Part shown: positions 29,910 to 44,928 of the stretch, one piece after another
Layout: each line of letters opens with the position of its first letter
Numbering within the stretch: position 1 is the first letter of the stretch
DNA from: a bacterium GBS-1
GTDB taxonomy: Bacteria; Synergistota; GBS-1
Assembly (NCBI GenBank): GCA_001443005.1
Contig: LEKQ01000001.1
Location: 142,792 to 206,791, forward strand
Length of the DNA stretch: 64,000 bases
Direction: 5' to 3'
Translations under genes and position numbers: made by a program
Notes under the pieces: generated by a model
Database searches by the model: none
What the model was told of the DNA's origin: nothing
Seen by the model: only the letters and a program-made list of their open reading frames with translations

Positions 29910-29939
29910 GGGGGGGAATTAAATATGTTAGGAGGATAT

Positions 29940-31754
29940 ATGAATAAGGTATTAAGGATAAATCTAACAACTGGAGAAATAAGAACAGAACCCCTTGATC
30001 TTAACATGGCAAGAAAGTTCTTAGGTGGAAGAGGTTTTGCCTCTTATACCCTTTACAAGGAGTTAAAAAAGGGAATAGATCCATTAGGCCCAGAAAATAA
30101 GCTGATAATGGCATCTGGCCCTCTTGCAGGTTTATTCCATCCTTGCAGCAGCAAGATCACATTCGCAGCAAAGTCTCCTCTAACTGGAATCTACGGAGAT
30201 AGTAATATGGGAGGTCATCTAGCAGCGGAGCTTAAATACGCTGGTTATGATATGGTAATATTCGAGGGATCCTCAAACAAGCCCGTTTATATAGTTATAG
30301 ATGACGATAAGGTTGAAATTAGGGATGCTTCCCATCTCTGGGGTAAGGGGACAATTGAAACAGAAAAGCAGCTTAAGGATGAGCTTGGAGATGATTTCCA
30401 AATAGCAGTCATAGGACCAGCGGGAGAAAATTTAGTTAAGGTGGCTATAATAAGACACGATTTCGGTAGAGAATCAGGAAGGACTGGTGTGGGTGCAGTT
30501 ATGGGGTCCAAAAAAATAAAAGCTATAGCGGTTCGAGGCACTAAAAGCATACCAGTAGCTGATTTCGATGAATACCTTAGGATTGGTAAAGAGATGTTCA
30601 AATCTTTAATGTCAAGTCCTATATTCCCAGAATTTCAAAGGTATGGAACCACAATGGTTGTAGATTGGGTAAATGAAATAGGAGCATTCCCAACAAGGAA
30701 CTTCGCTACAGGCTATCATGAAAATTACAAAGAGCTAAATGGAACCGCAATGAAGGAAAGAGTCTGGATCCATGACAAGGCTTGTGGTTTCTGCCCCATA
30801 GCTTGCGGAAACTACTCTCGAGTGGAGTATAAAGGAAAAACGTATTACGTAGAGGGACCCGAATATGAAACCATAGGTATGATTGGCGGATGCTGTGTGA
30901 TGCCATCCATATACGAGGTAACTTACGGAAATTATGTTTGTGATAACCTCGGCTTAGATACTATTTCCACAGGTGCGATAATAGCCTTCGCTTACGAATG
31001 TTACGAAAAGGGAATAATAACTAAAAATGATACCAATGGGCTCGAATTGAGATGGGGAGATATAGAATCCTTTGCAAAGCTTGCTGAGATGATCGCAAAG
31101 AGAGAGGGAATAGGAAACATATTAGCTGAAGGAGTTAAGAAGGCCGCTGAAAGTTTCGGTAAAGACTCTATAAAATTCGCCATGCAAGTAAAGGGTATGG
31201 AAATAAGCGCTTATGAATCCCACTGGGCACCTGCTATGCTCCTAGCATACGCTACATGCGATATTGGAGCACATCATAATAGAGCTTGGGCTATAACATA
31301 TGATATAGAAGTAGGAAGAGAGAAGATCACAAAGGACAAAGCTGAAAGGGTTGTGTTCCTGCAACATGCAAGGCCCATGTTCGATGCTCTCGGGGTGTGC
31401 AGGCTGACATGGGTCGAATGCGGATTAAACCTGGAATATTATGCTAAAATCTACAGTGCAGTAACTGGATGGGAAACTACTTTAAACGACCTCCTTAAAT
31501 GCGCTGAGAGAGCCTGGAACCAAAACAGGCTATTTGCCATAAGAGAGATTCCCGATTTCGGAAGGAAATATGATTACCCACCAGCAAGGTGGATGGAAGA
31601 ACCAGCCATAAGCGGACCAACGAAGGGCAGGCTCATTCCTAAAGAAGACGTAGATAAACTACTTGACTTCTACTACGAAGTTAGAGGTTGGGATAAATAT
31701 GGTAGACCTACTCCTGAAAAAATAAAAGAGTTAGAACTGGAGGTGACAGAGTAA
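29940..31754 (+). CDS. aor: tungsten-containing aldehyde:ferredoxin oxidoreductase (AOR family)
   Basis: AOR N-terminal and catalytic domains (NKVLRINLTTGEI; GRESGRTG; DxxCGxC region). ATG at 29940 has TTAGGAGGATAT SD; the track start at 29925 is an upstream in-frame ATG. Confidence 0.9.
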   Translation: MNKVLRINLTTGEIRTEPLDLNMARKFLGGRGFASYTLYKELKKGIDPLGPENKLIMASGPLAGLFHPCSSKITFAAKSPLTGIYGDSNMGGHLAAELKYAGYDMVIFEGSSNKPVYIVIDDDKVEIRDASHLWGKGTIETEKQLKDELGDDFQIAVIGPAGENLVKVAIIRHDFGRESGRTGVGAVMGSKKIKAIAVRGTKSIPVADFDEYLRIGKEMFKSLMSSPIFPEFQRYGTTMVVDWVNEIGAFPTRNFATGYHENYKELNGTAMKERVWIHDKACGFCPIACGNYSRVEYKGKTYYVEGPEYETIGMIGGCCVMPSIYEVTYGNYVCDNLGLDTISTGAIIAFAYECYEKGIITKNDTNGLELRWGDIESFAKLAEMIAKREGIGNILAEGVKKAAESFGKDSIKFAMQVKGMEISAYESHWAPAMLLAYATCDIGAHHNRAWAITYDIEVGREKITKDKAERVVFLQHARPMFDALGVCRLTWVECGLNLEYYAKIYSAVTGWETTLNDLLKCAERAWNQNRLFAIREIPDFGRKYDYPPARWMEEPAISGPTKGRLIPKEDVDKLLDFYYEVRGWDKYGRPTPEKIKELELEVTE

Positions 31755-31755
31755 T

Positions 31756-31779
31756 GGGAAGGGGAAAAAACCCCTTCCC
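31756..31779 (+). terminator. GC-rich hairpin after aor (weak terminator or processing/stability element)
   Basis: GGGAAGGGG-AAAAAA-CCCCTTCCC stem-loop with no clear U-tract. It sits 11 nt before the next start. Confidence 0.4.
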
Positions 31780-31790
31780 ATTACATTAAC

Positions 31791-32018
31791 ATGGCGATAA
31801 AGATTAGAACTGGAGGGCTAACTCTTAAAAGATATATCCCAGATATCTATTATGTAGATATAGATTCGCCCCTTACCGTTAGAGATCTACTCACTAAACT
31901 TGGCATACCTGAAGGACTAATCGCTGGGGTAATCATAGATGGTAAAATAGTAGATAAGTCATACGAGATTAAGGATGGACAGGAAATCGTTCTAATGCCG
32001 CCTATCTCAGGAGGTTAA
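31791..32018 (+). CDS. MoaD/ThiS-family ubiquitin-like sulfur-carrier protein (C-terminal GG)
   Basis: 75 aa ending ...LMPPISGG, with the beta-grasp pattern IIDGKIV...IKDGQEIVLMPP. Confidence 0.75.
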   Translation: MAIKIRTGGLTLKRYIPDIYYVDIDSPLTVRDLLTKLGIPEGLIAGVIIDGKIVDKSYEIKDGQEIVLMPPISGG

Positions 32019-32024
32019 ACAGTA

Positions 32025-33170
32025 TTGAGAAGTTCCGCGGAAGCGGTTATCATCGGTGGAGGAGTTCAAGGCTGCTCACTGGCTTATAACCTCGCTAAAA
32101 GGGGATGCAAGAACGTAGTTTTAGTTGAACAAAAATTCTTAGCCTACGGAGGAACGGGAAGATCGGGCGGGGGAGTAAGACATCAATTTGGAACAGAGAT
32201 AAATTGCAGACTTGCTATCTATAACGTGAAGTGTTTCGAATACTTACAAGATGAATTAGGTTACAAGGAAAGCATAGAGTTTGAACAGGGAGGTTATCTT
32301 TGGATAGCTTATACTGAGCGCCAGCTGGAACAGCTTAGAAAAAACGTTAAGCTCCAGAATAGCTTAGGTATACCCTCCATGCTCTTATCTCCCACAGATA
32401 TAAAAGAATTAATCCCCCAAATCAACCTGGATGGGATAATAGGAGGCAGCTTCTGTGAAAAGGATGGACATATAAATCCATTCCATGTCACATTAGCTTA
32501 CGCTGAAGCTGCAAAAAGGCTCGGTGTTGAGATAAACACTTACACTAAAGTTATAGGAATAAAACTAAAGGGAAATACAATAGATGGGGTATATACTGAC
32601 AAAGGATTTATATCTACCCCCATAGTTGTTAACTGCGCTGGTCCCTGGGGTAAGGAAATAGCCAAACAGATTGGTATCGAAATTCCCCTATATTCTGAAA
32701 GACACCAAATACTAGTCACAGAACCAGTAGAAAGAACGCTAAGAAGCCTTATACTATGTTTAGACGATGGATCTTACTGGAAGCAAACACCGCATGGTAA
32801 CTTTATGCTCGGGATAGGAAACCCAAACGAGGCTAAGGGCTTCAACATGAGTTCGAGTTGGCAATTTCTTGAAGAAGCTTCAAGGAAAATAGTGAAAAAG
32901 ATGCCAATATTATCAAACCTCAGGGTTATAAGACAATGGGCAGGCCTATACGACATAACTCCTGACTCTCAAGCTATTTTAGGACCAACTAAGATAAATG
33001 GATTTTACCTTAATCTTGGATGGAGTGGTCATGGCCTTCAGTTCGCTCCATCCATAGGAAGGGCTTTATCTGAGCTTATACTTGGCGAAAAACCTTTCAT
33101 TGATATAAGTCCATTTTACATTGAAAGATTTGAAAACGGAAAGCTCATTCCTGAACCTGCTTGCATCTAG
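32025..33170 (+). CDS. FAD-dependent oxidoreductase, DAO family (sarcosine/glycine oxidase beta-like)
   Basis: AVIIGGGVQGCSLAYNLAKRG dinucleotide fold and the GTGRSGGGVRHQ motif typical of SoxB/ThiO/ProDH-beta enzymes. Confidence 0.75.
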   Translation: MRSSAEAVIIGGGVQGCSLAYNLAKRGCKNVVLVEQKFLAYGGTGRSGGGVRHQFGTEINCRLAIYNVKCFEYLQDELGYKESIEFEQGGYLWIAYTERQLEQLRKNVKLQNSLGIPSMLLSPTDIKELIPQINLDGIIGGSFCEKDGHINPFHVTLAYAEAAKRLGVEINTYTKVIGIKLKGNTIDGVYTDKGFISTPIVVNCAGPWGKEIAKQIGIEIPLYSERHQILVTEPVERTLRSLILCLDDGSYWKQTPHGNFMLGIGNPNEAKGFNMSSSWQFLEEASRKIVKKMPILSNLRVIRQWAGLYDITPDSQAILGPTKINGFYLNLGWSGHGLQFAPSIGRALSELILGEKPFIDISPFYIERFENGKLIPEPACI

Positions 33171-33196
33171 GGGTGATATGATTTTAACAAGAGGTG

Positions 33197-34180
33197 ATGC
33201 ATTTGCTTATCATTAGGAAGTCAGACATTGAAAAAGCCATAACGATGAGTGATGCTATTAAAGCCATAAGAAGAGGATTTGCAACCTTCTCCAAAGGGAG
33301 AGCAATTGTTCCATTAAGGATACCCATAAGCATAGAAAAGAATACCGTTCTATTTATGCCAGGAGCCCTAACGGACGAGAAAAAAGTTGGTATTAAGGTC
33401 GTTTCTGTATATCCCCAGAATATAGAGAGCAACTTACCCCTGATACATGCAGCAATCCTTCTCATAGATGGGGAAAAAGGCATACCTAAGGCTTTAATAG
33501 AAGGAGGTTACGTTACAGCTATAAGAACAGGAGCTGCAGGCGGTGTCGCAGCTGACCTTCTAGCGAGAAAAGATGCAGAGGTCGCTTTCGTTTTTGGAGC
33601 TGGTGTTCAAGGAAGAAGCCAGCTCGAAGCTTTATGTGCTGTTAGGAACATAAAGCTCGCTTATGTATACGACATAGATTCGACTAAAGCTAAAATCTAT
33701 GAAACAGAGATGAAAGAAAAGCTTGGAATAGAAGTAAGGTTCGTTAAAAACTATGAGCGATTCATTCCCGAAGCTGACATTATAGTCACCGCAACACCAT
33801 CCAGAGAACCTTTTTTAAAAGGTGAGCTTCTCAAAGAGGGAGTTCACATAAACGCCATAGGTTCTCACACAACAGATATGAGCGAACTAGACACGAGTGT
33901 CTTCAAAAGAGCCTCGATTATAGCGGTCGACTCAAAAGAAGCAGTTCTTAAAGAAGCAGGGGAAGTTATAAATGCTATTAAAGCCTCTGTAATTAGAGAA
34001 AAAGACTTAATCGAAATCGGAGAGATAATAAACGACCCATCTAAGTCTAGGAAGCATGAAAGGGAAATAACTATTTTTAAGACCGTAGGTATAGCTATAG
34101 AAGATGTAGTAGTTGGAGAGCTTATATATGAAAAAGCCAAAGAAAAGAGCGTTGGAATAGAAATAAAGGACTTTTTCTGA
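33197..34180 (+). CDS. ornithine cyclodeaminase / mu-crystallin family protein
   Basis: Mu-crystallin Rossmann pattern (VFGAGVQGRSQLEAL) and OCD-family N-terminus. Confidence 0.8.
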   Translation: MHLLIIRKSDIEKAITMSDAIKAIRRGFATFSKGRAIVPLRIPISIEKNTVLFMPGALTDEKKVGIKVVSVYPQNIESNLPLIHAAILLIDGEKGIPKALIEGGYVTAIRTGAAGGVAADLLARKDAEVAFVFGAGVQGRSQLEALCAVRNIKLAYVYDIDSTKAKIYETEMKEKLGIEVRFVKNYERFIPEADIIVTATPSREPFLKGELLKEGVHINAIGSHTTDMSELDTSVFKRASIIAVDSKEAVLKEAGEVINAIKASVIREKDLIEIGEIINDPSKSRKHEREITIFKTVGIAIEDVVVGELIYEKAKEKSVGIEIKDFF

Positions 34181-34220: not shown

Positions 34221-34571
34221 GTGATTTCATTGAAGCTTAAAGAGGTTATGAACACCCTAGAAGCTAAAATCTACACTGGGGAAGAGCTTCTTGAAAGAGA
34301 AATCAGTTTTGGTTGTGCATCAGATATGATAAGTGATATTCTAGCATTAGCTAAACCTGGTTCACTTTTGCTTACAGGTATAATCGCCCCCCAGATAATA
34401 AGGATAGCGAAAATACTAGATCTATCTGGAATAGTTATTGTTAGGGGTAAAGAGCCCATGGAAGAAACAATAGCTAAAGCAAAAGAAGAAAGGGTTCCCC
34501 TCTTAGGAACTAAATTTCTTTTATTTGATGCTTGTGGAAAACTTTACGAGAAAGGGCTAAGGGGTACATGA
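34221..34571 (+). CDS. DRTGG domain protein
   Basis: 116 aa, with GIVIVRG and the DRTGG-type C-terminus (...KGLRGT). Confidence 0.6.
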   Translation: MISLKLKEVMNTLEAKIYTGEELLEREISFGCASDMISDILALAKPGSLLLTGIIAPQIIRIAKILDLSGIVIVRGKEPMEETIAKAKEERVPLLGTKFLLFDACGKLYEKGLRGT

Positions 34572-35527
34572 GCGAGATAGAGCTTGATTTAATAAGCCAC
34601 CTAAGCGAATATAAAAGGATCTTTAGCTTCTTGACCGCAGAAGATATAATGAAAAAAGAGCTAATAACCTTAACTCCAGAGAACTATCTCTCTGAAGCAA
34701 GAGTTATAATGCGCGACAAGAGAATCTCAGGCATACCTATAGTAGATAAAGAAGGTAAACTTGTTGGTTTAGTTAGCACAGAGCGTATAATAAGAGCTCT
34801 CGAGGAAGGGATAATAAGCAATAAGATAAAGGAATACATGACCCCCCGAGAGAAGATCGTATACTTCAGTCCGAAAGATACCTTCGAAAAAATCGTAGAA
34901 ACCTTTGAAAGATATAGATACGGCAGATATCCTGTGATAGACGAGCATAACAAACTTTTAGGCCTTATAACCAAGCACGACATCTTAAGGGCTATCCTAA
35001 AACAGTTTCATTCAATATATATTCACGACAGAAGGAGAGAAGAGTATCTAAATAGGGAAGTTTCCATTCTTGCAAGTGATAAGTTTATAGAAGACAAGGC
35101 CTCTTTCAGATATGATATAAATACCCAATCCATATCAGAAGCAGGAGAGGGAACAGCCCTTCTAAAGAAGGTATTGGAAAAAAGAGGATATCATAGAGAT
35201 TTCATCAGAAGAGTAAGCATAGGGACATATGAAGCAGAGGTAAATGTAGTGATACACGCGGGAGGAAAGGGCTTGATATTAGCTTTTTTTGAAGAAGATG
35301 GTGTTGTAGTTTTTGTCAGGGACTGGGGGCCAGGAATAGAAGATATAGATTTAGCGATGAAAGAAGGTTTCTCAACCGCACCAGATCATATAAGGGAGCT
35401 GGGCTTTGGGGCTGGTATGGGATTACCAAATATGAGAAGAGCTGCTGACAGACTTGTAATACTATCGCAAAGTGGGAAAGGGACTAGAGTAGAAATGGTA
35501 TTCAACCTAAAGGAGGGAAGAGATTGA
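34568..35527 (+). CDS. CBS-pair sensor fused to GHKL (HATPase_c) ATPase domain
   Basis: Two CBS motifs (ISGIPIVDKEGKLVGLVS; YPVIDEHNKLLGLITKHD). C-terminal ATP-binding Bergerat fold (DWGPGIED...GFGAGMGLP). Confidence 0.7.
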   Translation: MSEIELDLISHLSEYKRIFSFLTAEDIMKKELITLTPENYLSEARVIMRDKRISGIPIVDKEGKLVGLVSTERIIRALEEGIISNKIKEYMTPREKIVYFSPKDTFEKIVETFERYRYGRYPVIDEHNKLLGLITKHDILRAILKQFHSIYIHDRRREEYLNREVSILASDKFIEDKASFRYDINTQSISEAGEGTALLKKVLEKRGYHRDFIRRVSIGTYEAEVNVVIHAGGKGLILAFFEEDGVVVFVRDWGPGIEDIDLAMKEGFSTAPDHIRELGFGAGMGLPNMRRAADRLVILSQSGKGTRVEMVFNLKEGRD

Positions 35528-35859
35528 AAGTAAGGGAGATCATTGAGATTTTAGATTGCGAGGTCCTAACCGGAAACGTAAATCTAGAGGAAGAAGTAAA
35601 ATACGGTTACACAAGTGACCTTCTAAGCGAAGTTATAGGCAAAGCACATCCAGACTCGGTTTGGATTACTATACAAAGTCACCTAAACATCGTTGCTGTA
35701 GCAGTATTGGTAGGTATAAAGGCAATTGTAGTCTGTGAGGGGAAAACAGTAGATCCCAAAGTAGTAGAAAAAGCTATTCAAGAAAAGGTAGCTATAATAA
35801 CTACAAGAGAAAACTCATTCAGAACTTCTGGAAAGCTATACGAAGCTGGACTAAGATAA
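35524..35859 (+). CDS. DRTGG domain protein
   Basis: 111-aa paralogue of 34221 ending ...KLYEAGLR. Confidence 0.6.
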   Translation: MKVREIIEILDCEVLTGNVNLEEEVKYGYTSDLLSEVIGKAHPDSVWITIQSHLNIVAVAVLVGIKAIVVCEGKTVDPKVVEKAIQEKVAIITTRENSFRTSGKLYEAGLR

Positions 35860-35884
35860 AGCTTCTATGTTATAATTTAGCAGG

Positions 35885-36616
35885 ATGTGGTATAAAGCTG
35901 ACCTCCACGTTCATACGGTGCTTTCGGCCTGTGCGGACTGGGAAATGACCCCAACCAACATAGTGCACAGAGCCAAGGAGGTAGGGTTAAACATATTAGC
36001 TATTACTGATCACAATACCGTTAAGAATGTGGGAGCAGGCATTAGAGCAGGTCAAAGAGAAAACATCTTGGTTATACCAGGTGTGGAGATACAAACGAAA
36101 GAAGAAGTCCATATAATAGCTCTTTTCCCCTCTGAAGAAAAAGCCCTCGCGTTTGAAGAATGGTTAAAACCCCTCTTGCCTAATTTAAACAATGATGAGG
36201 ATCTCTTTGGAGTCCAAGTTGTAGTAGATGAAGAAGACAACGTAGTAGAGATAGATAAGAGATTACTCCAAATCTCTGCTAATGCTTCAATAGAGGAAGT
36301 TATGCTTAAAGTGAAGCAACTGGATGGAGTGGCTTATCCAGCTCACATAAACAGAGATTTTTGTGGAATTATACCCACCCTAGGTTTTATTCCCCCTGAT
36401 CTCCCATTTAAAATACTCGAAATTAACCATAACACTGATCTTTCATCTTTCCTCAAAACCCATCCAGAGTTAAACGATTACGTAATATTAATTTCATCAG
36501 ATGCACATTTTCTATCATCTATAGGAAACTCAAGAACGGCCATATACCTACGAAATTTAAGCTCCAGCGAGTTAATTGAAGCAATTCAAGACAAAAGGAG
36601 GGTTAAAGTATGGTAA
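35885..36616 (+). CDS. PHP-domain phosphoesterase
   Basis: DLHVHTVLSACAD...ILAITDHN is the PHP metal-binding signature. Confidence 0.75.
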   Translation: MWYKADLHVHTVLSACADWEMTPTNIVHRAKEVGLNILAITDHNTVKNVGAGIRAGQRENILVIPGVEIQTKEEVHIIALFPSEEKALAFEEWLKPLLPNLNNDEDLFGVQVVVDEEDNVVEIDKRLLQISANASIEEVMLKVKQLDGVAYPAHINRDFCGIIPTLGFIPPDLPFKILEINHNTDLSSFLKTHPELNDYVILISSDAHFLSSIGNSRTAIYLRNLSSSELIEAIQDKRRVKVW

Positions 36617-37083
36617 AATTATCAAAAGAGAAGCTTGATAAAGTTGAAACCATATTGGATCGCTTTCCTAAAGGGCAGTCATCGTTAATAGGGGCTCTTC
36701 ATGCAATACAGCTTGAAATAGGTTATCTTCCAGAGGAAGTCCAAAAGCTTGTGGCTGAAAAACTTGAAATTCCAGAAAGCACCGTCTACGGTGTTGTAAC
36801 ATTTTACAACTTTTTCCGTAAAGAACCCGTCGGAAAGTATATAATAACCGCTTGTCAGGGAACAGCTTGTCACGTGAGGGGAGCAGGAAGCGTAATCGAA
36901 GCTTTCGAAAAAACCCTAGGAATAAAGGTAGGGCATACAACACCAGATGGAAAGTTTACGCTTGACATAGCAAGATGTTTCGGCGCATGTGGATTAGCAC
37001 CTGTTGTTATGGTCAATAACGATATATATGGAAGGATGAGCCCAAAGAAGGTAGAAGAAGTAATAGCAAAATACAGAGATTAA
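36610..37083 (+). CDS. NuoE/HoxE/HydC-like [2Fe-2S] thioredoxin-fold subunit (copy 1)
   Basis: CQGTACH...CFGACGLAPV four-Cys pattern of NuoE/HndA. Confidence 0.85.
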   Translation: MVKLSKEKLDKVETILDRFPKGQSSLIGALHAIQLEIGYLPEEVQKLVAEKLEIPESTVYGVVTFYNFFRKEPVGKYIITACQGTACHVRGAGSVIEAFEKTLGIKVGHTTPDGKFTLDIARCFGACGLAPVVMVNNDIYGRMSPKKVEEVIAKYRD

Positions 37084-37634
37084 TGGAGGAACTATCTCTA
37101 CACCTAATAGACTTAATTGAAAACTCTATAAGCGCTAAAGCCTCTTTAATAAAGATCCTTATCGAAGTAAGTAAATCAAACGATCTAATAAAGATAGTTA
37201 TAGAAGATAACGGAGAGGGTATGAATGAAGAGGAAATCGAAAAGGCAAAAGATCCATTCTTCACAACCAAAAAGAACAAAAAAGTTGGTTTAGGTATTCC
37301 TATATTTGCTCAAATTGTTGAGTCTTGCGGAGGAAGATTTGAAATCGTTAGCCAAAAGGGGAAGGGAACAAAAGTCAACGCTGAGATGAAGCTTAGTCAC
37401 ATAGATCGCCCCCCATTGGGAGATCTCGCTTCAACCTTATTCACATCTATAATAGGGCACCCTGATGTAGACTTTTTAATAAAGATAAAGACTGATGAAG
37501 GAATCGTTGAGATCAACACAGCAGAAATTAAAGAGTTTTTGGGGGAAAGCTCCTTCAACCATCCTGAGGTTATAATCTTTTTAAGAGAGAACATTGATAG
37601 AGAAATAAAAGGCATACTGAAAGGAGGTATATAA
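37083..37634 (+). CDS. histidine-kinase-like ATPase (HATPase_c only) associated with hydrogenase operon
   Basis: N/G1/G2 boxes (IEDNGEGM; GLGIP). No sensor or DHp domain. Conserved position after NuoE, as in bifurcating hydrogenase operons. Confidence 0.7.
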   Translation: MEELSLHLIDLIENSISAKASLIKILIEVSKSNDLIKIVIEDNGEGMNEEEIEKAKDPFFTTKKNKKVGLGIPIFAQIVESCGGRFEIVSQKGKGTKVNAEMKLSHIDRPPLGDLASTLFTSIIGHPDVDFLIKIKTDEGIVEINTAEIKEFLGESSFNHPEVIIFLRENIDREIKGILKGGI

Positions 37635-37985
37635 ATGAAGATTGAGGAGCTCAGGAAACTCAGAGAAAAGGTGAGGGAAGACCTTAAATTAAGGGAAGGA
37701 ATAGAACCTAGAGTAAAGATTATAGTTAGCATGGGGACATCTGGAATAGCTGCAGGAGCAAGAGAGGTATTAAAAGCCTTGTTAGACGAGGTAGCAAAGA
37801 GGGAATTAAAGGATGTGATTGTACTACAAACGGGAGAAAAGGGATTAGCATCAGCTGAACCAATAGTAGAGGTTGTTACTAAAGAGGCTACAATAACCTA
37901 CGGTAGAGTAACACCAGAAATCGCGAGAAAGATTGTTATTGAGCATGTGATAAACGGAAGGGTTCTATCCGAATATGTAATATAA
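37635..37985 (+). CDS. thioredoxin-like ferredoxin-fold protein (HndB-like), cysteine-free
   Basis: 116 aa with the HndB/NuoF N-terminal-domain pattern but no cysteines at all. Confidence 0.55.
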   Translation: MKIEELRKLREKVREDLKLREGIEPRVKIIVSMGTSGIAAGAREVLKALLDEVAKRELKDVIVLQTGEKGLASAEPIVEVVTKEATITYGRVTPEIARKIVIEHVINGRVLSEYVI

Positions 37986-37986
37986 C

Positions 37987-40900
37987 ATGACCCTTAAAGG
38001 AGGCGGTGAGAAATTGCCTAAGAGAACTGACCTTCTAATATGTTTGGGAGCGGGTTGCGTTTCCTCGGGCAGTGAGCTTATAAAGAAAAAGCTTGAAGAA
38101 AAAATAAGAGAAAAAGGACTTGAGAATGAAGTAAGAATTATAGGTACAGGTTGCATGGGTCCTTGTGAAAGGGGACCCGTTATAATGATATACCCAGAGG
38201 GGGTATTTTACCAGAGGATAACCTTAGAAGATGTCGACACTATCGTTGAACAGCATCTGCTTAAAGGGAAGATCGTTGAAAAGCTTCTCCCCAAGGAAGA
38301 ATTAGCCCCAAGCATTAAAGAAAAAGAAATTCCATTCTTCACCAAACAGAAGAAGATAGTTTTATCTAACTGCGGTATTATAGATCCAGAGAAGATAGAA
38401 GAATACATAGCGGTAAACGGATACGAAGCTTTAGCCCGCGTTCTTGAAGGCATGACTCCAGAGCAAGTTATAGCAGAAATAGAAAAGTCTGGATTAAGAG
38501 GCAGAGGTGGCGCCGGATTTCCTACAGGAGCTAAATGGAAGTTTGTGAGAAACGCCCAAGGCAAGCCTAAATTCGTCGTATGTAACGCTGACGAAGGAGA
38601 CCCGGGTGCCTTTATGGACAGAGCGGTATTGGAAGGAGACCCTCACGCTGTCTTAGAGGGAATGCTTATCGCCGCTTATGCCGTAGGAGCGGAGCAAGGG
38701 TACATCTACGTGAGAGCTGAGTATCCCTTAGCCATAAAGAGGCTTCAAATAGCTATAGACCAAGCTCGTAAGTACGGATTCTTAGGGAAGAACATACTGG
38801 ATACGGACTTCTCCTTTGATATAGAGCTCAGAATCGGAGCTGGAGCTTTCGTCTGTGGAGAGGAAACAGCTTTACTTGCCTCCATAGAGGGTAAAAGAGG
38901 CATGCCAAGATCAAAGCCTCCATTTCCAGCAACTCATGGACTTTGGGGTAAACCTACCTTGATAAACAACGTAGAAACCTATGCCAACGTGAGGCATATT
39001 ATACTTAACGGTGCAGACTGGTTTAGAAGTTTTGGAACCCCATCATCTCCTGGAACAAAAGTATTCGCCCTATCTGGAAAGGTTAGGAACACAGGCTTAA
39101 TAGAAGTTCCCATGGGGACAACTCTTGGAGAGATTGTTTTCGACATAGGGGGCGGAATAATAGGAGATAGAAAGTTTAAGGCTGCACAAACGGGAGGTCC
39201 TTCAGGAGGTTGCTTGACTGTTAAGCACCTTAACCTACCGTTAGATTATGAATCTGTGAAAGAAGCAGGAGCAATAGTTGGCTCAGGCGGACTCATAGTC
39301 GTCGATGAAACTACATGCATGGTTGAACTTGCTCGTTACTTTCTAGAATTCTGTCAAGAAGAATCCTGTGGCAAATGTACACCATGCAGAGTAGGAACTA
39401 AAAAGATGCTCGAGATCCTTGAAAGAATAATTCATGGAAAAGGAACACTTGAAGACTTAGATAGGCTTGAGGAAATTGGAATGTGGGTTCAGCAAACCGC
39501 TCTCTGTGGATTAGGGCAAACGGCTCCCAACCCAGTCCTAAGCACTCTTAAATACTTCAGAGACGAATATGAAGCACATATTATAGATAAAAGATGTCCA
39601 GCTGGGGTCTGTGCCGACCTATTTATAGCTCCTTGCGAAAACGCTTGCCCAGCTCACGTGGACGTCCCAGCCTACATAGCTCACATCTCAGAAGGGAGAT
39701 TCAAGGAGGCCTTCTACGTACACATAAAGAATAATCCGTTCCCATCGGTATGCGGTAGAGCTTGTCCAGCACGCTGTGAAAGCTATTGTAGAAGACTTCA
39801 GGTAGATGAATCCATAGCGATAAGACAGCTCAAGAGATTTATGGCAGATAAGGCTATTGAGGAAAAGTGGGAGCTTCCTAAACCTGAAAGATATAACGGC
39901 AAGAAAGTGGCCATAGTTGGAGCTGGTCCTGCAGGATTAAGCGCAGCTTACTTCCTCAACCTTAAAGGATATAAGGTCACCGTCTTCGAAGCCCTTCCTG
40001 AACCTGGAGGAACCCCTACTCACTATATCCCTGAATATCGTCTACCAAAGGAAATAATCCTGGAAGAGGTAAGAAGAATAGAGAGATCTGGAGTCGAGAT
40101 AAGGGTCAATCACCCAATAACTGATTTAGAAGCCCTTAGAAAAGACTATGACGCAGTTTTCTTAGCGTGTGGAAGCATGAAAGAGACGAAGCTTAACGTT
40201 CCTGGAGAGAACCTGAAGGGAGTCCTAAGTGGCATGGAATTCCTAGGTAAAGTCAAGAAGGGAGAGAAGCCAGATATAGGCAAGAAAGTAGTAGTCATAG
40301 GAGGAGGAAACACAGCTATCGATGCTGCAAGAACGGCTTGGAGATTGGGAGCAGACGTTCATGTTATCTATAGAAGAACGAGAGATGAAATGCCAGCCCT
40401 TCATGAAGAAATAGAGGAAGCAGAAAGAGAGGGAATAAAGTTCACGTTCCTTGCAACACCAGTTAAGTTCCTAGAGGAAGATGGAAGGGTTAGAGCTGTT
40501 AGATGTATAAGCATGAAACTTGGAGAGTTTGACTCAACTGGTAGAAGAAAACCCATACCGATAGAAAACTCGGAATTCGATGTAGAAGCTACAAGCGTCA
40601 TAGTAGCAGTTGGACAAAGAGCTGACCTCGCGTTTAAGGTAGATGGTCTTGAACTAACCAGTTGGGGAACTATAAAGGTTGACCTAAGAACGCTTAAAAC
40701 CTCCTTGGAAGGGGTCTTCGCAGGCGGAGATGTTGTTCGTGGACCTTCAACAATCGTAGAAGCTGTAGCTGATGGAAGGTTAGCAGCTTCAATGATAGAC
40801 AAATACCTTGGTGGAGATGGTATACTATGGTACGAAAGTAGGGAATCAGTGAAAACCACATATAATGAGGAAGAATATCTCAAAACCCAGCCAAGGAGAA

Positions 40901-41040
40901 AGCCTGTTATCCTACCAGTAGATAGAAGAAGGAACTTCGCTGAGGTAGAAAAAACTTTCTTTGAAGGACAAGCTGTGGAAGAAGCAAGAAGATGTTTACA
41001 CTGTGACATAAAAGAGGAGGTCTTATTAGAAGAGGGGTGA
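37987..41040 (+). CDS. NuoF-like flavoprotein fused to GltD-like NAD(P)H:FAD oxidoreductase (1017 aa)
   Basis: N-terminal 2Fe-2S Trx-like domain (CLGAGC...CMGPCERGP). NuoF core (GLRGRGGAGFPTG; ESCGKCTPCR). GltD-type Fe-S region (CPAHVD...CGRACPARCE). Two dinucleotide folds (VAIVGAGPAG; VVVIGGGNTAIDAA). Confidence 0.85.
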   Translation: MTLKGGGEKLPKRTDLLICLGAGCVSSGSELIKKKLEEKIREKGLENEVRIIGTGCMGPCERGPVIMIYPEGVFYQRITLEDVDTIVEQHLLKGKIVEKLLPKEELAPSIKEKEIPFFTKQKKIVLSNCGIIDPEKIEEYIAVNGYEALARVLEGMTPEQVIAEIEKSGLRGRGGAGFPTGAKWKFVRNAQGKPKFVVCNADEGDPGAFMDRAVLEGDPHAVLEGMLIAAYAVGAEQGYIYVRAEYPLAIKRLQIAIDQARKYGFLGKNILDTDFSFDIELRIGAGAFVCGEETALLASIEGKRGMPRSKPPFPATHGLWGKPTLINNVETYANVRHIILNGADWFRSFGTPSSPGTKVFALSGKVRNTGLIEVPMGTTLGEIVFDIGGGIIGDRKFKAAQTGGPSGGCLTVKHLNLPLDYESVKEAGAIVGSGGLIVVDETTCMVELARYFLEFCQEESCGKCTPCRVGTKKMLEILERIIHGKGTLEDLDRLEEIGMWVQQTALCGLGQTAPNPVLSTLKYFRDEYEAHIIDKRCPAGVCADLFIAPCENACPAHVDVPAYIAHISEGRFKEAFYVHIKNNPFPSVCGRACPARCESYCRRLQVDESIAIRQLKRFMADKAIEEKWELPKPERYNGKKVAIVGAGPAGLSAAYFLNLKGYKVTVFEALPEPGGTPTHYIPEYRLPKEIILEEVRRIERSGVEIRVNHPITDLEALRKDYDAVFLACGSMKETKLNVPGENLKGVLSGMEFLGKVKKGEKPDIGKKVVVIGGGNTAIDAARTAWRLGADVHVIYRRTRDEMPALHEEIEEAEREGIKFTFLATPVKFLEEDGRVRAVRCISMKLGEFDSTGRRKPIPIENSEFDVEATSVIVAVGQRADLAFKVDGLELTSWGTIKVDLRTLKTSLEGVFAGGDVVRGPSTIVEAVADGRLAASMIDKYLGGDGILWYESRESVKTTYNEEEYLKTQPRRKPVILPVDRRRNFAEVEKTFFEGQAVEEARRCLHCDIKEEVLLEEG

Positions 41041-41047
41041 TTAAAGC

Positions 41048-41512
41048 ATGATTGGAGAGATCCTGAAGAGGTTCGAGCCGAGGAGAGAGAATCTATTGGA
41101 TATACTTCATGCCATGCAAGAAGCATCACCCACCAACAGCCTTTCAAAAGAAGACATAGAAGCTGTTGCTAAGTATGTCGGTATAACACCAGCAGAAGTC
41201 TGGGGAACCGCTACATTTTACTCCATGTTCTCTGTCAAACCTAGAGGAAAGTACGTAATAAGGGTCTGTACCTCACCAGCTTGTCATCTATTAGGAGGAG
41301 AAAGCGTCTTAGAAGCACTTAAAAGGGAACTGGGAATCGATGTAGGAGAAACGACGAAGGACGGAGTTTTCACACTGGAAACCTCGAGCTGCTTAGGAAT
41401 TTGCGGTGTAGCTCCGGCTATGATGATAGATGAAATAGCATATGGGAACCTCACCCCTGAGAAAATTAAAGAGATAATTCTTAGCTATAGAAAGAGGGGA
41501 GAAGAATCATGA
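41048..41512 (+). CDS. NuoE/HydC-like [2Fe-2S] subunit (copy 2)
   Basis: CTSPACH...CLGICGVAPA four-Cys motif. Confidence 0.85.
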   Translation: MIGEILKRFEPRRENLLDILHAMQEASPTNSLSKEDIEAVAKYVGITPAEVWGTATFYSMFSVKPRGKYVIRVCTSPACHLLGGESVLEALKRELGIDVGETTKDGVFTLETSSCLGICGVAPAMMIDEIAYGNLTPEKIKEIILSYRKRGEES

Positions 41513-43074
41513 TAAGAATAGAAAGGGCGCATATTCTCGTCGGCATAGATCAGGGCTCGATCTTAGCTGGAGCAAGGGACGTCCAAAAAAAGCTCGAGGA
41601 AGAGATTAAAAAGCGCGGTCTTGAAACCGAAATAAGAGTCCTTGAAACGGGAAGCCTTGGAATAACAGGAAGGGGAGTCGTTCTTCTAGTTTACCCCGAA
41701 GGCGTATATTACGTTAACGTAAAAGTTGAGGATGTTCCAGAAATAGTGGAAGAACACCTGCTTAAGGGCAGATTCGTTAAACGTCTCATGCTCGAACCTC
41801 AACTGGCAGAAATCCTCGCTAAAGGAGAGTTTCCTAAAAAACTCTCAAAGCAAAAAAGGGTGGTTCTTCAAAATGCAGGTGTTATAAATCCAGACAGCAT
41901 AGAAGAATACATTGCTGTTGGAGGATACGAAGCTTTAGCTAAGGCTCTTGAGTCATCTCCAGAGTGGGTTATAAACGAAATAGATAACTCAGGCTTAAGA
42001 GGCAGAGGTGGTGCTGGATTCCCAACAGGGAAGAAATGGAAGTTCACTGCTGAAGTTAAAGCTCCTCAGAAGTTCATAATATGTAATGCAGATGAAGGAG
42101 AACCAGGTACTTTCAAAGATAGGCTTATACTTGAAGGTGATCCTCACAAGGTCCTTGAAGGCATGGCCATCGCAGGCTACGCAGTAGGTGCAAACAAGGG
42201 CTATCTCTATATAAGAGGTGAATATGACCTGTCTATTCGTAGGATAAGCAAAGCTATAGAAGATGCTTATAAGATGGGATTACTTGGTGATAACGTATTG
42301 GATAGCGGCTTTTCCTTCCATGTGGAAATTAAGAAGGGAGCAGGTGCCTATGTATGCGGAGAGGAAACGGCCTTAATAGAGTCTATAGAGGGGAAGAGGG
42401 GAAATCCTCGTCCCAAACCACCTTACTACCCTGGTATAAAGGGACTTTGGGGGTATCCTACAGTGGTAAATAACGTTGAAACCTTAGCTAATGTCCCTCC
42501 AATAATACTGAACGGAGCAAGTTGGTTTAAGAGTATGGGAACGAAGGAATCCCCAGGCACCAAGGTTTACACCATCTTAGGACATGTTAAAGAACCAGGG
42601 TTAATAGAAGTAGAAATGGGAACAACGCTTAGAGAAGTTATCTTTGAGTTTGGTAAGGGAATGAGAAATAATAGAGAATTCAAAGCTGCACTAATAGGGG
42701 GAGCGGCGGGAGCTTTCTTAGGGAAAGAAGCCCTTGATATCCCTCTATCCTATGAAGGTCTTAGGGAGTATGGGGGAGTCTTAGGATCAGGAGCTATCCT
42801 TGTGCTTGATGACTCGACATCAATCACCGATATGCTACAAAACGTGATATCCTTCTTCAAACATGAAAGTTGCGGGAAGTGTGTCCCGTGCCGAGTAGGA
42901 ATTACTAAGCTACTTGAAAGGATGGAGAAAGGTACCCTACTTGAAAAAGATCTCAAGGAAATGATAGAGATATCAGAAAAGATGGCCGATACAGCACTTT
43001 GTGCTTTAGGCCAATCGTTAATTCTTCCCGTATCAAGTGCAGTCCGTTTCTTCAAAGAAGAACTTACAGCATAG
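41509..43074 (+). CDS. NuoF/HydB-like NADH-binding flavoprotein subunit (copy 2)
   Basis: GLRGRGGAGFPTGKKW and ESCGKCVPCR. The N-terminal Trx-like domain lacks Cys and there is no C-terminal ferredoxin domain. Confidence 0.85.
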   Translation: MIRIERAHILVGIDQGSILAGARDVQKKLEEEIKKRGLETEIRVLETGSLGITGRGVVLLVYPEGVYYVNVKVEDVPEIVEEHLLKGRFVKRLMLEPQLAEILAKGEFPKKLSKQKRVVLQNAGVINPDSIEEYIAVGGYEALAKALESSPEWVINEIDNSGLRGRGGAGFPTGKKWKFTAEVKAPQKFIICNADEGEPGTFKDRLILEGDPHKVLEGMAIAGYAVGANKGYLYIRGEYDLSIRRISKAIEDAYKMGLLGDNVLDSGFSFHVEIKKGAGAYVCGEETALIESIEGKRGNPRPKPPYYPGIKGLWGYPTVVNNVETLANVPPIILNGASWFKSMGTKESPGTKVYTILGHVKEPGLIEVEMGTTLREVIFEFGKGMRNNREFKAALIGGAAGAFLGKEALDIPLSYEGLREYGGVLGSGAILVLDDSTSITDMLQNVISFFKHESCGKCVPCRVGITKLLERMEKGTLLEKDLKEMIEISEKMADTALCALGQSLILPVSSAVRFFKEELTA

Positions 43075-43089
43075 GAGGTGTTTAATACT

Positions 43090-44928
43090 GTGAGAGAGGT
43101 AAAACTCAAGATAGACGGAAAGGAAGTTATAGCAACAGAAGGCATGACAATACTTGAAGCAGCAAGAAAGGCTGGTTTTGAAATTCCTACTCTTTGCTAT
43201 CACGATGGATTATCTGCACATGGTGGATGCAGACTCTGTGTAGTCGAAGTTAAAGGTTCTCCAAGGCTTCTAACAAGCTGTACCACCCCTGTAACCAACG
43301 GAATGGAGGTATCTATAAACACAGACCGTGTTAAAGAGGCTCGTAAATTCGTAATGAACCTTATAATGACCGAAAGAAACCACTTCTGCATGTTCTGCGA
43401 AAAAAGCGGAAGATACGAAGAAACCGATTGTGAACTTCAAAAGAGAGCTTACGAAGTCCAGATAGAACACTTCCCGTTCCCAGTATATGTTAATAAATAT
43501 CCAATAGACACAACGTCACCAGTTATGGTAATGGACCACAACCGTTGCATACTCTGTGGCAGATGTGTTAGAGTCTGTTCGGAAGTCGTAGCTAACTCAA
43601 CCTTAGACTTCAGCTTCAGAGGTTCAAAAGCCTTGATAGCTTCAGATACAGGCTTGAACAGGGGGGAATCAAGCTGCATATCCTGTGGAGCTTGCATGCA
43701 AGTATGTCCTGCGGGAGCGTTGTTCAGCAAGTTTGGAGGATATAAAGGAAAGAAGAGCTTGTGCGAAAAGATAGAAACATTCTGCCCCATATGTGGTGTC
43801 GGTTGTGAAACAACCAACTATGTGCGTTATAACAACATAGTTGAGATAGAGGGAAGCGGTCTGGCTAAGGGAAACTTAGATGGAGGGCAGCTCTGCGAAA
43901 AAGGAAGATACGGTCCCTTGATGGAAACGAGGAACAGGATATCTCTTCCGCTCCTTAGGGATTCCAGAGGAAGATTTGTAGAAAGTAGCTACCAGGAAGC
44001 AATAAACAAAAGTATACAGCTGCTTAAAGCCTATTCCCCAGACAAGATAGTCTTCAGAGTCTCTTCCTTCCTACCAGCGGAAGACCTAGCCTACATAAAA
44101 GGGTTCGCTCTCAAGCTTGGAGTAAAAGATATAGACACCTTCGATGGAGAAATATATAGGAATTTGATATCTTTCGATTACCCTAAAGCGAACTACGAAG
44201 ACATCCTTAACTCAGACCTAATCATACTTGTGGGTGGCGACATTGTGAAAGAACATGGAGTGGTTGGATCTTACATAAGGAGAGCCGTTAGGAATAAAGG
44301 CGCTGAATTAATCATAATCTCTCCAGCAGAAAGCAAGATGGATAGATTCTCCAAGGAGGTAAGGAGAGTTGCGGAAGGCAGTGAAGGTTCAGTCGTCAAA
44401 GAATATGAGGAGAAAATAAGGAAAGCTTCTAACCCAGTGATAATTCTTGAGGGCGCTTATCTTCTTAAAAACAGGGAAGCAATAGAATCATGGCTTAAAT
44501 TCGCTGAAGCGTCAAAGGTTAAAACTCTACCTCTACCCCCCACAGGTAACAGCTTAGCAGCTTGGAAGCTAGGTATATCGTCTAAATCCAACGAGAATAC
44601 AGAATCCGGAAAACTTCTTTTCCTCATCCTCGGAGATATAGATTCTAGCTACTCACCCGCATCCTTAGCTGAGCTAGGCTTCGAAGCAATAATACTCCAT
44701 GGAGCTTATATAGACCCGATGATGAAGCTAGCTGATGTCGTTTTGCCTGGAAAAAGTTGGCTTGAAAATGAAGGAACATATAAGCTAATAAGCGGAGAAG
44801 TTAAGAAGTTTACGCCTATACTCCGGGCAGAAAAGGATGCGAAGAGCCCAAGGGAGCTACTTTCTGAGCTTGCAGACGCCTTAAGATTAGGTAAAATTGA
44901 TATAGATAGTTTAATTACAAGTTTGTAA
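43090..44928 (+). CDS. NuoG/HydA-like Fe-S subunit (2Fe-2S + 4Fe-4S N-terminus, truncated molybdopterin-like C-domain)
   Basis: CYHDGLSAHGGCRLCVV; CILCGRCVRVC; CISCGACMQVCP. No H-cluster motifs. GTG at 43090 has AGGAGGTG upstream; the track start at 43078 overlaps the SD. Confidence 0.8.
   Translation: MREVKLKIDGKEVIATEGMTILEAARKAGFEIPTLCYHDGLSAHGGCRLCVVEVKGSPRLLTSCTTPVTNGMEVSINTDRVKEARKFVMNLIMTERNHFCMFCEKSGRYEETDCELQKRAYEVQIEHFPFPVYVNKYPIDTTSPVMVMDHNRCILCGRCVRVCSEVVANSTLDFSFRGSKALIASDTGLNRGESSCISCGACMQVCPAGALFSKFGGYKGKKSLCEKIETFCPICGVGCETTNYVRYNNIVEIEGSGLAKGNLDGGQLCEKGRYGPLMETRNRISLPLLRDSRGRFVESSYQEAINKSIQLLKAYSPDKIVFRVSSFLPAEDLAYIKGFALKLGVKDIDTFDGEIYRNLISFDYPKANYEDILNSDLIILVGGDIVKEHGVVGSYIRRAVRNKGAELIIISPAESKMDRFSKEVRRVAEGSEGSVVKEYEEKIRKASNPVIILEGAYLLKNREAIESWLKFAEASKVKTLPLPPTGNSLAAWKLGISSKSNENTESGKLLFLILGDIDSSYSPASLAELGFEAIILHGAYIDPMMKLADVVLPGKSWLENEGTYKLISGEVKKFTPILRAEKDAKSPRELLSELADALRLGKIDIDSLITSL

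Follow-up and report, generated by a model that had tools for sequence, protein, structure and literature searches.

A putative sensing cassette of DRTGG, CBS-GHKL and PHP proteins at a NiFe hydrogenase operon, and its relation to the gene neighbourhood of group D HydS

In the literature on group D HydS, a putative sensory [FeFe]-hydrogenase, the neighbouring regulatory genes are named only as 'histidine/serine kinase' or 'histidine kinase-like ATPase' (PMC3561251; PMC8163306). A "histidine kinase-like ATPase" adjoins TamHydS (Land et al., PMC8163306), group D HydS adjoins such a gene upstream of HydABC (PMC8163306), and a 2026 study regards the interaction partners of HydS as still to be identified (PMC13104023). 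Cthe_0339 and Tte0891 appear as "histidine kinase" and "hypothetical protein" in hydC-hydD-hydB-hydA operons (PMC4694547; PMC3990059), and a comparison with and without Tte0891 has been constructed (PMC4694547). The NiFe-HydABCSL enzyme of A. mobile was purified without HydD and HisK (PMC8880783), both of which were 'assumed' to take part in maturation and/or regulation (Feng et al., PMC8880783). In the open-access papers searched we found no relevant literature that links DRTGG, PHP or CBS-GHKL proteins to hydrogenases. Here we report on such proteins in silico, encoded at positions 34221-37985 (+ strand) of a 64,000-nucleotide (nt) stretch of DNA from the bacterium GBS-1 (the window), where they lie upstream of and within a hydrogenase operon.

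The neighbourhood of group D HydS in C. thermocellum (Cthe_0335 region) and Thermoanaerobacter mathranii (TamHydS) has the same GHKL core, DRTGG pair and PHP gene as the window, in the same order, and also the same HATPase and HydD genes between hydC and hydB (PMC3561251; PMC8163306; PMC3990059). This order is shared by the window with the loci L072-L080, L088 and L089 of the survey described below, the GHKL cores being 42-53% identical. The window differs from the group D HydS sets in that it has no HydS gene, carries a CBS pair on the GHKL protein and is associated with a NiFe instead of an FeFe enzyme. With A. mobile NiFe-HydABCSL it has in common the architecture of the enzyme and the extra HydD-like and HisK-like genes, a likeness drawn from the published description; the upstream DRTGG/CBS-GHKL/PHP set is not described there (PMC8880783), and the HydD-like protein of the window lacks cysteines. 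The locus is best filed as a CBS-input, NiFe-associated variant of a hydrogenase-associated regulatory set known only in passing. We consider this set to be a conserved sensing and regulatory accessory to multimeric hydrogenases of the NuoE/NuoF (HydC/HydB, 'Bfu') type, with a probability of roughly 0.55.

Domains were assigned with Pfam and NCBIfam. The seven genes of the locus, all on the + strand, overlap or lie at most 25 nt apart:

34221-34571, + strand: DRTGG-A, single-domain protein of 116 amino acids (aa), or 113 aa from an alternative start (Pfam DRTGG, 26.0 bits)
34568-35527, + strand: CBS pair (~34640-35002) joined to a SpoIIAB-like GHKL ATPase and putative Ser kinase (~35159-35509), 319 aa (Pfam, TIGR01925)
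35524-35859, + strand: DRTGG-B, single-domain protein of 111 aa (Pfam DRTGG, E 1.4e-9)
35885-36616, + strand: PHP-family metal-dependent phosphoesterase, 243 aa (PHP E 3e-9, PHP_C E 1e-5)
36610-37083, + strand: NuoE/HydC-type [2Fe-2S] protein, first copy (2Fe-2S_thioredx E 4.5e-53; TIGR01958 above cut-off)
37083-37634, + strand: stand-alone GHKL/GHL ATPase, 183 aa (HATPase_c E 2.9e-16, HATPase_c_3 E 5e-11)
37635-37985, + strand: HydD-like thioredoxin-fold protein, 116 aa, no cysteine (similarity to the NuoF2 N-terminal domain)

These genes are followed by NuoF::GltD, the NiFe genes HydC-B-A-S-L and hypAB, and the overlaps and short gaps indicate that cassette and hydrogenase genes probably form one transcription unit. 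The six cassette proteins proposed in the earlier note were all recovered at their positions on the + strand, with every named domain. The note had also stated that DNA-binding and DHp domains are missing, and this agrees with our scans: neither Pfam nor NCBIfam revealed an HTH, HisKA, REC, STAS, PP2C or sigma-70 domain in the cassette proteins, and the same domains were found neither in the called genes from ~10 kb upstream of CBS::GHKL to the NiFe large subunit on contigs with the identical locus (assemblies of 77 °C enrichments taken from Great Boiling Spring) nor in the four open reading frames (ORFs) downstream of the hydrogenase. The nearest named relatives of the locus proteins come from metagenome-assembled genomes (MAGs) of Synergistetes.

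To place the set among regulatory systems we compared it with further classes. Group C HydS, which carries PAS, occurs with a Ser/Thr kinase and a PP2C phosphatase (Ruminococcus albus hydS; Thermoanaerobacterium hfsABCD) and thus follows the same sensor-kinase-phosphatase logic near hydrogenase genes; the genetics of this system point to an effect on fermentation balance (PMC5707799; PMC11837493). These sets have PAS and PP2C (HfsC) with no DRTGG mentioned, whereas the window has CBS and PHP. We considered whether hfsABCD might be this cassette and rejected the idea: HfsB is a HydS of the PAS type, HfsC is a phosphatase of the PP2C type, and HfsD is a hydrogenase (PMC5707799; PMC11837493).

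The partner-switching systems SpoIIAB-SpoIIAA-SpoIIE and RsbW-RsbV-RsbU resemble the window in combining a HATPase_c_2 GHKL protein with flanking small alpha/beta proteins and a phosphoesterase gene, and those relatives of the GHKL protein that are devoid of a CBS pair have ~140 aa, as partner-switching kinases do. The window set differs by DRTGG in place of STAS, PHP in place of PP2C and the lack of a sigma factor. Among the called genes around the cassette no STAS antagonist stands beside the GHKL gene, the flanking small proteins being DRTGG proteins, and PHP is the sole phosphoesterase, with no PP2C of the SpoIIE/RsbU type. A sigma factor was found neither in the called genes of the identical locus nor in the four ORFs after the hydrogenase nor as a conserved neighbour in clustered hydrogenase-free loci. 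As STAS, PP2C, PAS and sigma factor are missing, the set falls outside the group C HydS and SpoIIAB classes. With no HisKA match in the cassette and no Response_reg in the called genes around it, it looks like a sensing module without classical two-component architecture, in line with what the earlier note had proposed.

CBS-type energy sensors (AMPK gamma, the CBS-DRTGG insert of CBS-pyrophosphatase, SpxR) share with the window the combination of a CBS pair and DRTGG with an enzymatic output. In the window this output is a GHKL ATPase and not a eukaryotic-type kinase or a pyrophosphatase, and DRTGG is a separate protein. Mitochondrial PDK and BCKDK are GHKL-family Ser kinases which switch NADH-linked dehydrogenase complexes off post-translationally by nucleotide ratios. 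They provide an analogy of mechanism only, with no close sequence kinship; PDK2 takes rank 47 among the Foldseek matches of the 183-aa ATPase.

The conservation of the set was assessed in other genomes. We obtained 3458 CBS::GHKL homologues at E <=1e-5, and ran a profile of 15 of them against the GTDB species, each represented by one genome. This led to at least 596 confirmed loci. The best 80 were taken with 10-kb flanks, and their six-frame ORFs were searched with the window proteins and with H-cluster motifs. Since the sample is anchored on the GHKL motif and limited to the best 80 of at least 596 loci, the following frequencies do not represent an unbiased census. The 80 loci originate from ~20 phylum-level groups. 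DRTGG genes are present in 76 of them and PHP in 61, with DRTGG-A upstream of the GHKL gene in 50 and DRTGG-B after it in 63. NuoE and/or NuoF occur within 10 kb in 44 of the 80 loci, and these 44 carry 17 phylum-level labels, including Chloroflexota, Actinomycetes, Planctomycetota, Verrucomicrobiota, Bacteroidota, Atribacterota and Bacillota. If only loci with full flanks are regarded (also 44), NuoE/NuoF are found in 28, among which 12 have NiFe and 12 have FeFe catalytic subunits.

The order of the genes varies. The cassette lies upstream of hydC, as in the window, or divergent from hydC-HATPase-hydD-hydB-hydA (spirochaetes, Kiritimatiellia), or between NuoF and a HoxU::HdrA fusion preceding the NiFe subunits (Cloacimonadota- and Ignavibacteria-type loci). 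An adjacency that is kept through such rearrangements is not due to chance. The earlier note had suggested a co-occurrence check, and a random distribution of the cassette relative to hydrogenase genes is refuted by the proximity of NuoEF in more than half of the sample. It is hence very improbable that the cassette consists of unrelated genes which came to lie beside the hydrogenase by accident. One could argue for such an accident from the genes upstream of the cassette, which share its strand and likewise have short gaps between them, and from the 16 of 44 full-flank loci without NuoEF; the recurrence over ~20 phylum-level groups in several gene orders, the insertion between structural genes and the existence of fusion proteins of GHKL and sensory hydrogenase speak against it.

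The stand-alone 183-aa HATPase follows the enzyme even more closely: 43 of the 44 NuoEF-containing loci have it, compared to 1 of the 36 others. Three extra loci were fetched by anchoring on HATPase homologues, and all three contain parts of the cassette. In Desulfolucanica the order is GHKL-HydS-DRTGG-NuoE-HATPase-HydD-HydB-HydA, and a Riflebacteria MAG (L091, 7292-18576) has PHP-HATPase-NuoE-HydD-NuoF::GltD-HydA. In Vallitalea longa (L090, 5064-14910) we find hydF, a 122-aa protein, GHKL, group D HydS, DRTGG, a HisK-like ATPase and rnfCDGEAB; with rnf genes downstream, this set may also serve the Rnf ferredoxin:NAD oxidoreductase. The distribution of the HATPase and the anchored loci suggest a portable core (DRTGG, GHKL, DRTGG, PHP) and a pair of ATPase and HydD which travels with NuoEF.

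The flanks of the Riflebacteria locus additionally hold two REC genes, a Rex-like gene and a sensory hydrogenase-histidine kinase (HydS::HisKA::HATPase_c), so that several regulatory layers meet at one locus.

The loci without NuoEF show where the core can stand by itself. In clustered hydrogenase-free loci no alternative conserved neighbour was found, and only the cassette genes recur. In Thermotoga sp. KOL6 (L085, 9248-11953), for example, DRTGG, CBS::GHKL and DRTGG with a divergent PHP gene come after an RseC/MucC-family gene and before gltX, hydrogenase-free within 10 kb. Such stand-alone occurrences suggest that the target of the cassette may be broader, or may be reached in trans. They would also fit a transcriptional partner switch, in which GHKL acts on a distant sigma factor or regulator with DRTGG as anti-anti-sigma factor, and hydrogenase expression is the output. 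In its favour, SpoIIAB anti-sigma F factors are the closest solved or curated GHKL relatives, group C HydS has been discussed together with kinases, phosphatases and Rex-type transcription control (PMC5707799), and the Riflebacteria locus has Rex and REC genes at its borders. However, sigma-70, STAS and PP2C were found neither in the called neighbours nor in the next four ORFs and do not recur near the clustered hydrogenase-free loci, and both the embedding of the cassette between structural genes and the second ATPase accompanying NuoEF point to the enzyme itself. We therefore regard a transcriptional switch as unlikely.

A further hint towards function arises from the input side of the GHKL protein. 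Nine loci, from Bacillota and relatives, have a GHKL protein devoid of a CBS pair, and a ~1.3-kb gene lies between GHKL and DRTGG-B. Its product combines two [4Fe-4S] motifs with a degenerate H-cluster domain (Fe_hyd_lg_C) and ends in an "FeS" motif, C-x-x-C-G-x-P-x-C, a content that corresponds to the architecture of the group D (M2e) putative sensory [FeFe]-hydrogenases. An adjacent HydS-like gene was found in 9/9 CBS-less loci (E 1e-88 to 1e-302) and in 0/71 CBS::GHKL loci. The CBS pair and group D HydS are thus mutually exclusive partners of the same GHKL core, which is reported here for the first time.

A HMMER search with the GHKL core only gave 1525 cluster representatives, the top 150 of which were classified:

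GHKL alone: 59 of the top 150
GHKL::HydS fusion: 42 of the top 150
CBS::GHKL: 34 of the top 150
DRTGG::GHKL fusion: 8-10 of the top 150
GHKL::DRTGG-B fusion (P0374): 1 of the top 150
DRTGG fragment::CBS::GHKL: 1 of the top 150

Fusion sequences were inspected, and three GHKL::HydS and two DRTGG::GHKL fusions were Pfam-scanned; examples from public metagenomes are P0352, P0364 and P0398 for GHKL::HydS and P0341, P0347 and P0373 for DRTGG::GHKL. The existence of natural GHKL::HydS and DRTGG::GHKL fusions is, like the exclusive swap, a new finding. The order within the fusions matches the order of the genes. By the "Rosetta stone" argument this suggests that GHKL contacts HydS, that the DRTGG proteins are direct partners of GHKL, and that the CBS pair fills the role of HydS where HydS is absent. 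The idea of redox or energy sensing put forward in the earlier note is backed by the exclusive CBS/HydS swap and by the GHKL::HydS fusions; the specific mechanism it proposed is unproven and partly questionable.

In the CBS::GHKL protein of the window, the two CBS motifs (E 2e-31) and HATPase_c_2 (E 4e-8, 33.7 bits compared to a cut-off of 27.4) are recognized by Pfam. The ORF opens at 34532, and homologues as well as gene calls on identical contigs place the true start at the ATG at 34568, leading to 319 aa. Among solved structures, SpoIIAB anti-sigma F kinases come closest to the GHKL core (PDB, E ~3e-11), and TIGR01925 (SpoIIAB) matches it with E 2.5e-12. As this match, at 46.9 bits, stays far under the cut-off of 135, the core is not a SpoIIAB orthologue. 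The ATP-binding motifs E-x-x-x-N, D-x-G-x-G and G-F-G-A-G-M-G (N, G1 and G2 boxes) are invariant in an alignment of 15 sequences, and the CBS-less versions, with 137-150 aa, have the size of SpoIIAB. Judged by these features the GHKL ATPase is probably a Ser/Thr kinase. The resemblance of the GHKL proteins to anti-sigma-type Ser kinases pointed out in the earlier note holds for CBS::GHKL, which is SpoIIAB-like, and not for the stand-alone HATPase, which is closer to histidine-kinase CA domains and MutL. An invariant Y-x-H-D in the linker between CBS and GHKL was considered as a general phospho-acceptor and rejected, because the CBS-less versions do not have this segment.

The second CBS motif keeps the ribose-binding signature G-h-h-T-x-x-D (G-L-I-T-K-H-D) with an invariant D138, and the CBS pair most likely binds an adenine nucleotide through it. 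Sub-threshold matches of the pair are the c-di-AMP receptor CbpB (E 2e-14) and the CBS domains of OpuCA.

DRTGG-A and DRTGG-B are paralogous to each other (32% identity, E 4e-22). With a Pfam PF07085 gathering cut-off of 25.2 bits, DRTGG-A is barely accepted and DRTGG-B (38.1 bits) clearly so; DRTGG-B also shows a weak match to Hpr_kinase_N. Its family profile matches the DRTGG domain of CBS-PPase (3l2b/3l31), AF_1212 (2ioj) and the N-terminal domain of HPrK/P. When the DRTGG proteins and the cassette proteins of Thermotoga were searched against PDB sequences, only weak DRTGG-family matches were of use. The stop of DRTGG-A overlaps the start of the GHKL gene (ATGA), and DRTGG-B is translationally coupled to the GHKL gene on its other side. 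Both paralogues conserve D-L-(M/L)-S-D-V and a Thr. These residues seem to be characteristic of the superfamily and do not amount to a demonstrable acceptor site.

The PHP protein is EndoQ/TrpH-like, without the Zn ribbon. That it belongs to a phosphoesterase family, as had been noted before, was borne out by its PHP and PHP_C domains and by its intact metal ligands: residues H8, H10, C16, D42, H43, E68, H76, H154, D206 and H208 do not vary among 24 sequences, and the His, Asp and Glu ligands of the tri-metal site of the PHP superfamily are all kept in the window protein. Its AlphaFold2 (AF2) model has a pLDDT of 96.5. All 35 Foldseek matches of the model at E <=1e-3 are EndoQ (TMq 0.72), BAD_1165, TM0559, RNase AM, PsfC, the pAp phosphatase Cv1693 and polymerase PHP domains, and a CpsB/YwqE-type protein phosphatase is absent among these 35. 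Sequence matches likewise comprise RNase AM and pAp phosphatases.

The PHP and CBS results raise the question whether the cassette could be a nucleotide-messenger module, with the CBS pair as receptor (for c-di-AMP, Ap4A or pAp), PHP as the matching phosphodiesterase and varied targets, to which GHKL and DRTGG would pass the signal and among which hydrogenases would simply be the most frequent neighbour. The matches to CbpB and OpuCA are compatible with this, as are the Ap4A/AMP-binding CBS-DRTGG unit of CBS-pyrophosphatase (PDB 3l2b/3l31), the hydrolysis of pAp and short RNAs by relatives of PHP, and the stand-alone cassettes. Nevertheless, the Firmicute version has DRTGG and PHP but no CBS pair, genes for a cyclase or synthetase do not recur as neighbours in the clustered hydrogenase-free loci, and the nucleotide assignments all stem from weak family-level similarity. 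We consider such a module to be quite improbable.

The 183-aa ATPase occupies the operon position of 'HisK', Tte0891 and Cthe_0339. It consists of a Bergerat fold and a small C-terminal alpha/beta domain (AF2 pLDDT 87). By sequence, histidine-kinase CA domains are closer to it than SpoIIAB, and in Foldseek they cover approximately its first 100 residues with a root-mean-square deviation of 2.5-3.8. Over the full length MutL, PMS2, MLH1 and TopoVI-B match best, with a TMq of only 0.43-0.57. A conserved motif S-H-I-D-R-P-P-L-G-D (residues 105-114) follows right after the Bergerat fold and recalls the H-box of HisKA (S-H-E-L-R-T-P-L). The His of this motif, as part of a permuted HisKA H-box, was dropped as a candidate for an obligatory phospho-His: it is N, S or T in approximately 10 of 44 loci, where D, P and G are retained, and the modelled region of S-H-I-D-R-P-P-L is a loop before the small alpha/beta domain and not a DHp hairpin.

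The adjacent cysteine-free 116-aa protein is 37% identical to the N-terminal thioredoxin (Trx)-like domain of the NuoF at 41509 (E 5e-10) and shows a weak 2Fe-2S ferredoxin match (E 3.9e-7). The homology to NuoF and the lack of any cysteine indicate a HydD-like protein which has lost its cluster ligands. Among homologous stand-alone HydD-like genes, 32 of 40 loci have 3-5 cysteines and 8 of 40 have 0-1.

The second NuoF/HydB of the operon has an N-terminal Trx-like domain (41509-41880) which is also without [2Fe-2S] cysteines; NuoF::GltD retains them.

The set could also be seen as a system for maturation, assembly or repair of the flavin-FeS module NuoEF/HydBC, the ATPases being ATP-driven clamps or chaperones, PHP processing a nucleotide cofactor or by-product and the cluster-less HydD serving as scaffold. 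The A. mobile authors left maturation open next to regulation for HydD and HisK, hydEFG genes adjoin the cassette in Caloramator, Desulfolucanica and Vallitalea, hypAB come after it in the window, and the MutL/TopoVI-B folds of the ATPase and the likeness of PHP to nucleotide phosphoesterases would suit such a role. This explanation nonetheless appears improbable to us: the set is found with both NiFe and FeFe enzymes, although their active sites mature by unrelated routes, swapped or fused sensor inputs (CBS pair, sensory hydrogenase) argue for signalling, and the core is found without a NuoEF neighbour.

For a sensing and regulatory accessory set the following working can be proposed. The domain composition, the intact ATP- and metal-binding residues, the synteny with NiFe and FeFe enzymes, the CBS/HydS swap and the fusions are observed; a kinase activity with its ligand and substrate, a substrate of PHP, and a regulated step with its target and direction are inferred. 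A first layer would be formed by the four-gene core, in which the GHKL ATPase has a CBS input here and a group D HydS input in Firmicutes. The DRTGG proteins, encoded by genes coupled to both sides of the GHKL gene, most likely bind GHKL as partners or substrates. The ligand state of the CBS pair (or of HydS) may be converted to an ATP-dependent state of a GHKL-DRTGG complex, and PHP might reset this state either by dephosphorylating the partner or by hydrolysing the nucleotide ligand. The second layer, inside the structural operon, could consist of the 'HisK' ATPase and the cluster-less HydD as the probable contact point on the enzyme. Through their influence on activity or assembly the signal would reach the HydBC/NuoEF module, so that H2 production or uptake might track energy charge and redox load. 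Action would be post-translational rather than transcriptional. For a specific Ser/Thr phospho-switch our confidence is lower than for the sensing and regulatory role as such. A partner switch of kinase and phosphatase, as suggested in the earlier note, stays plausible; no STAS, PP2C or sigma factor was found nearby to complete it, and the closest structural matches of the PHP protein are not of the CpsB/YwqE type.

Several findings weigh against the proposed role, in addition to the selective sampling of the 80 loci. The core stands without NuoEF in 16 of the 44 full-flank loci, and Aminicenantes, many spirochaetes and the cultured Thermotoga sp. KOL6 and Haliovirga abyssi carry it at a distance from any hydrogenase gene. 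The Vallitalea set precedes rnf instead of NuoEF/HydA, and the cassettes of Verrucomicrobiota and Desulfolucanica have no PHP gene. The fold neighbours of PHP are phosphodiesterases of nucleic acids and nucleotides and not protein phosphatases, and by fold the second ATPase is nearer to MutL/TopoVI-B than to a kinase. In the first CBS motif (residues ~66-73) the window lineage and its closest relative have S-T-E-R-I-I as compared to the family consensus S-I-E-D-I-I, the ribose-binding Asp being replaced by Arg.

A more far-reaching reading, which we put forward only tentatively and regard as doubtful, is that DRTGG-GHKL-DRTGG-PHP represents a distinct and hitherto unrecognised bacterial signal-transduction system next to two-component systems and STAS/PP2C partner switching. 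Its inputs would be swappable (a CBS pair, or group D HydS as neighbour or fusion), its DRTGG proteins would be switch partners or phospho-acceptors, and it would directly gate electron-bifurcating NuoEF enzymes after translation via the HisK-like ATPase and HydD. If true, the signalling partners of group D HydS, for which a search has long been under way, would be found as well. Electron-bifurcating hydrogenases set the balance of H2, NADH and ferredoxin in anaerobic fermenters and syntrophs and are targets of biofuel engineering. The analysis yields concrete regulator candidates for them, namely the SpoIIAB-like GHKL protein, two DRTGG proteins, the PHP esterase and the 'HisK' ATPase, and a role in such control would be the first defined one for the DRTGG domain. 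Comparative evidence suggests that in many phyla a metabolite-sensing CBS pair replaces an H2-sensing hydrogenase on the same core.

Downstream of the cassette the operon continues with:

37987-41040, + strand: NuoF::GltD fusion, 1017 aa (Complex1_51K, NADH_4Fe-4S, Fer4_20, Pyr_redox_2)
41048-41512, 41509-43074, 43078-44928, 44950-45489 and 45505-46932, + strand: NiFe hydrogenase, five genes (Pfam/NCBIfam)
46959-47384: ORF of 141 aa between the NiFe large subunit and hypA (no Pfam match)
47377-48396, + strand: hypA and hypB, nickel insertion, end of the cluster (HypA E 2.4e-32, CobW/HypB E 1.8e-23)

The five NiFe genes code for HydC, HydB, a HydA without H-cluster (NuoG/HydA-like) and the small and large subunits. 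NuoF::GltD is composed of a Trx-like [2Fe-2S] domain, an FMN/NADH module and a GltD/NfnB-like FAD/NAD(P)H module, and the first NuoE copy is its probable partner.

Upstream of the cassette, at 29925-34180 on the same strand and with gaps of 6-40 nt, lie genes for a tungsten-type aldehyde:ferredoxin oxidoreductase (AOR), a ThiS/MoaD-like protein, a DAO-family FAD oxidoreductase and an ornithine cyclodeaminase (OCD)/mu-crystallin-like protein. They may be co-transcribed with the cassette. The AOR, ThiS-like, DAO and OCD genes are not conserved neighbours of the cassette in other loci, and since they are packed equally closely, packing alone proves little. Scans for promoters and terminators yielded fewer sites than were obtained with shuffled sequence, and the limits of the operon did not emerge from them. 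The best extended -10 promoter-like match (TGGACT, 18 nt, TATAAT; 35847-35876) falls into the one true intergenic gap of the cassette, immediately ahead of the PHP gene, and is given little weight.

By its position the 141-aa ORF between the large subunit and hypA could be a maturation endopeptidase ('HydP' in A. mobile). NuoE together with NuoF::GltD (36610-41040), directly upstream of NiFe HydC-B-A-S-L, resembles a fused transhydrogenase of the Nfn-Bfu/Stn type, and the NuoF::GltD fusion is seen again together with NiFe or FeFe enzymes in the loci L017, L019, L028, L040, L047, L059 and L091.

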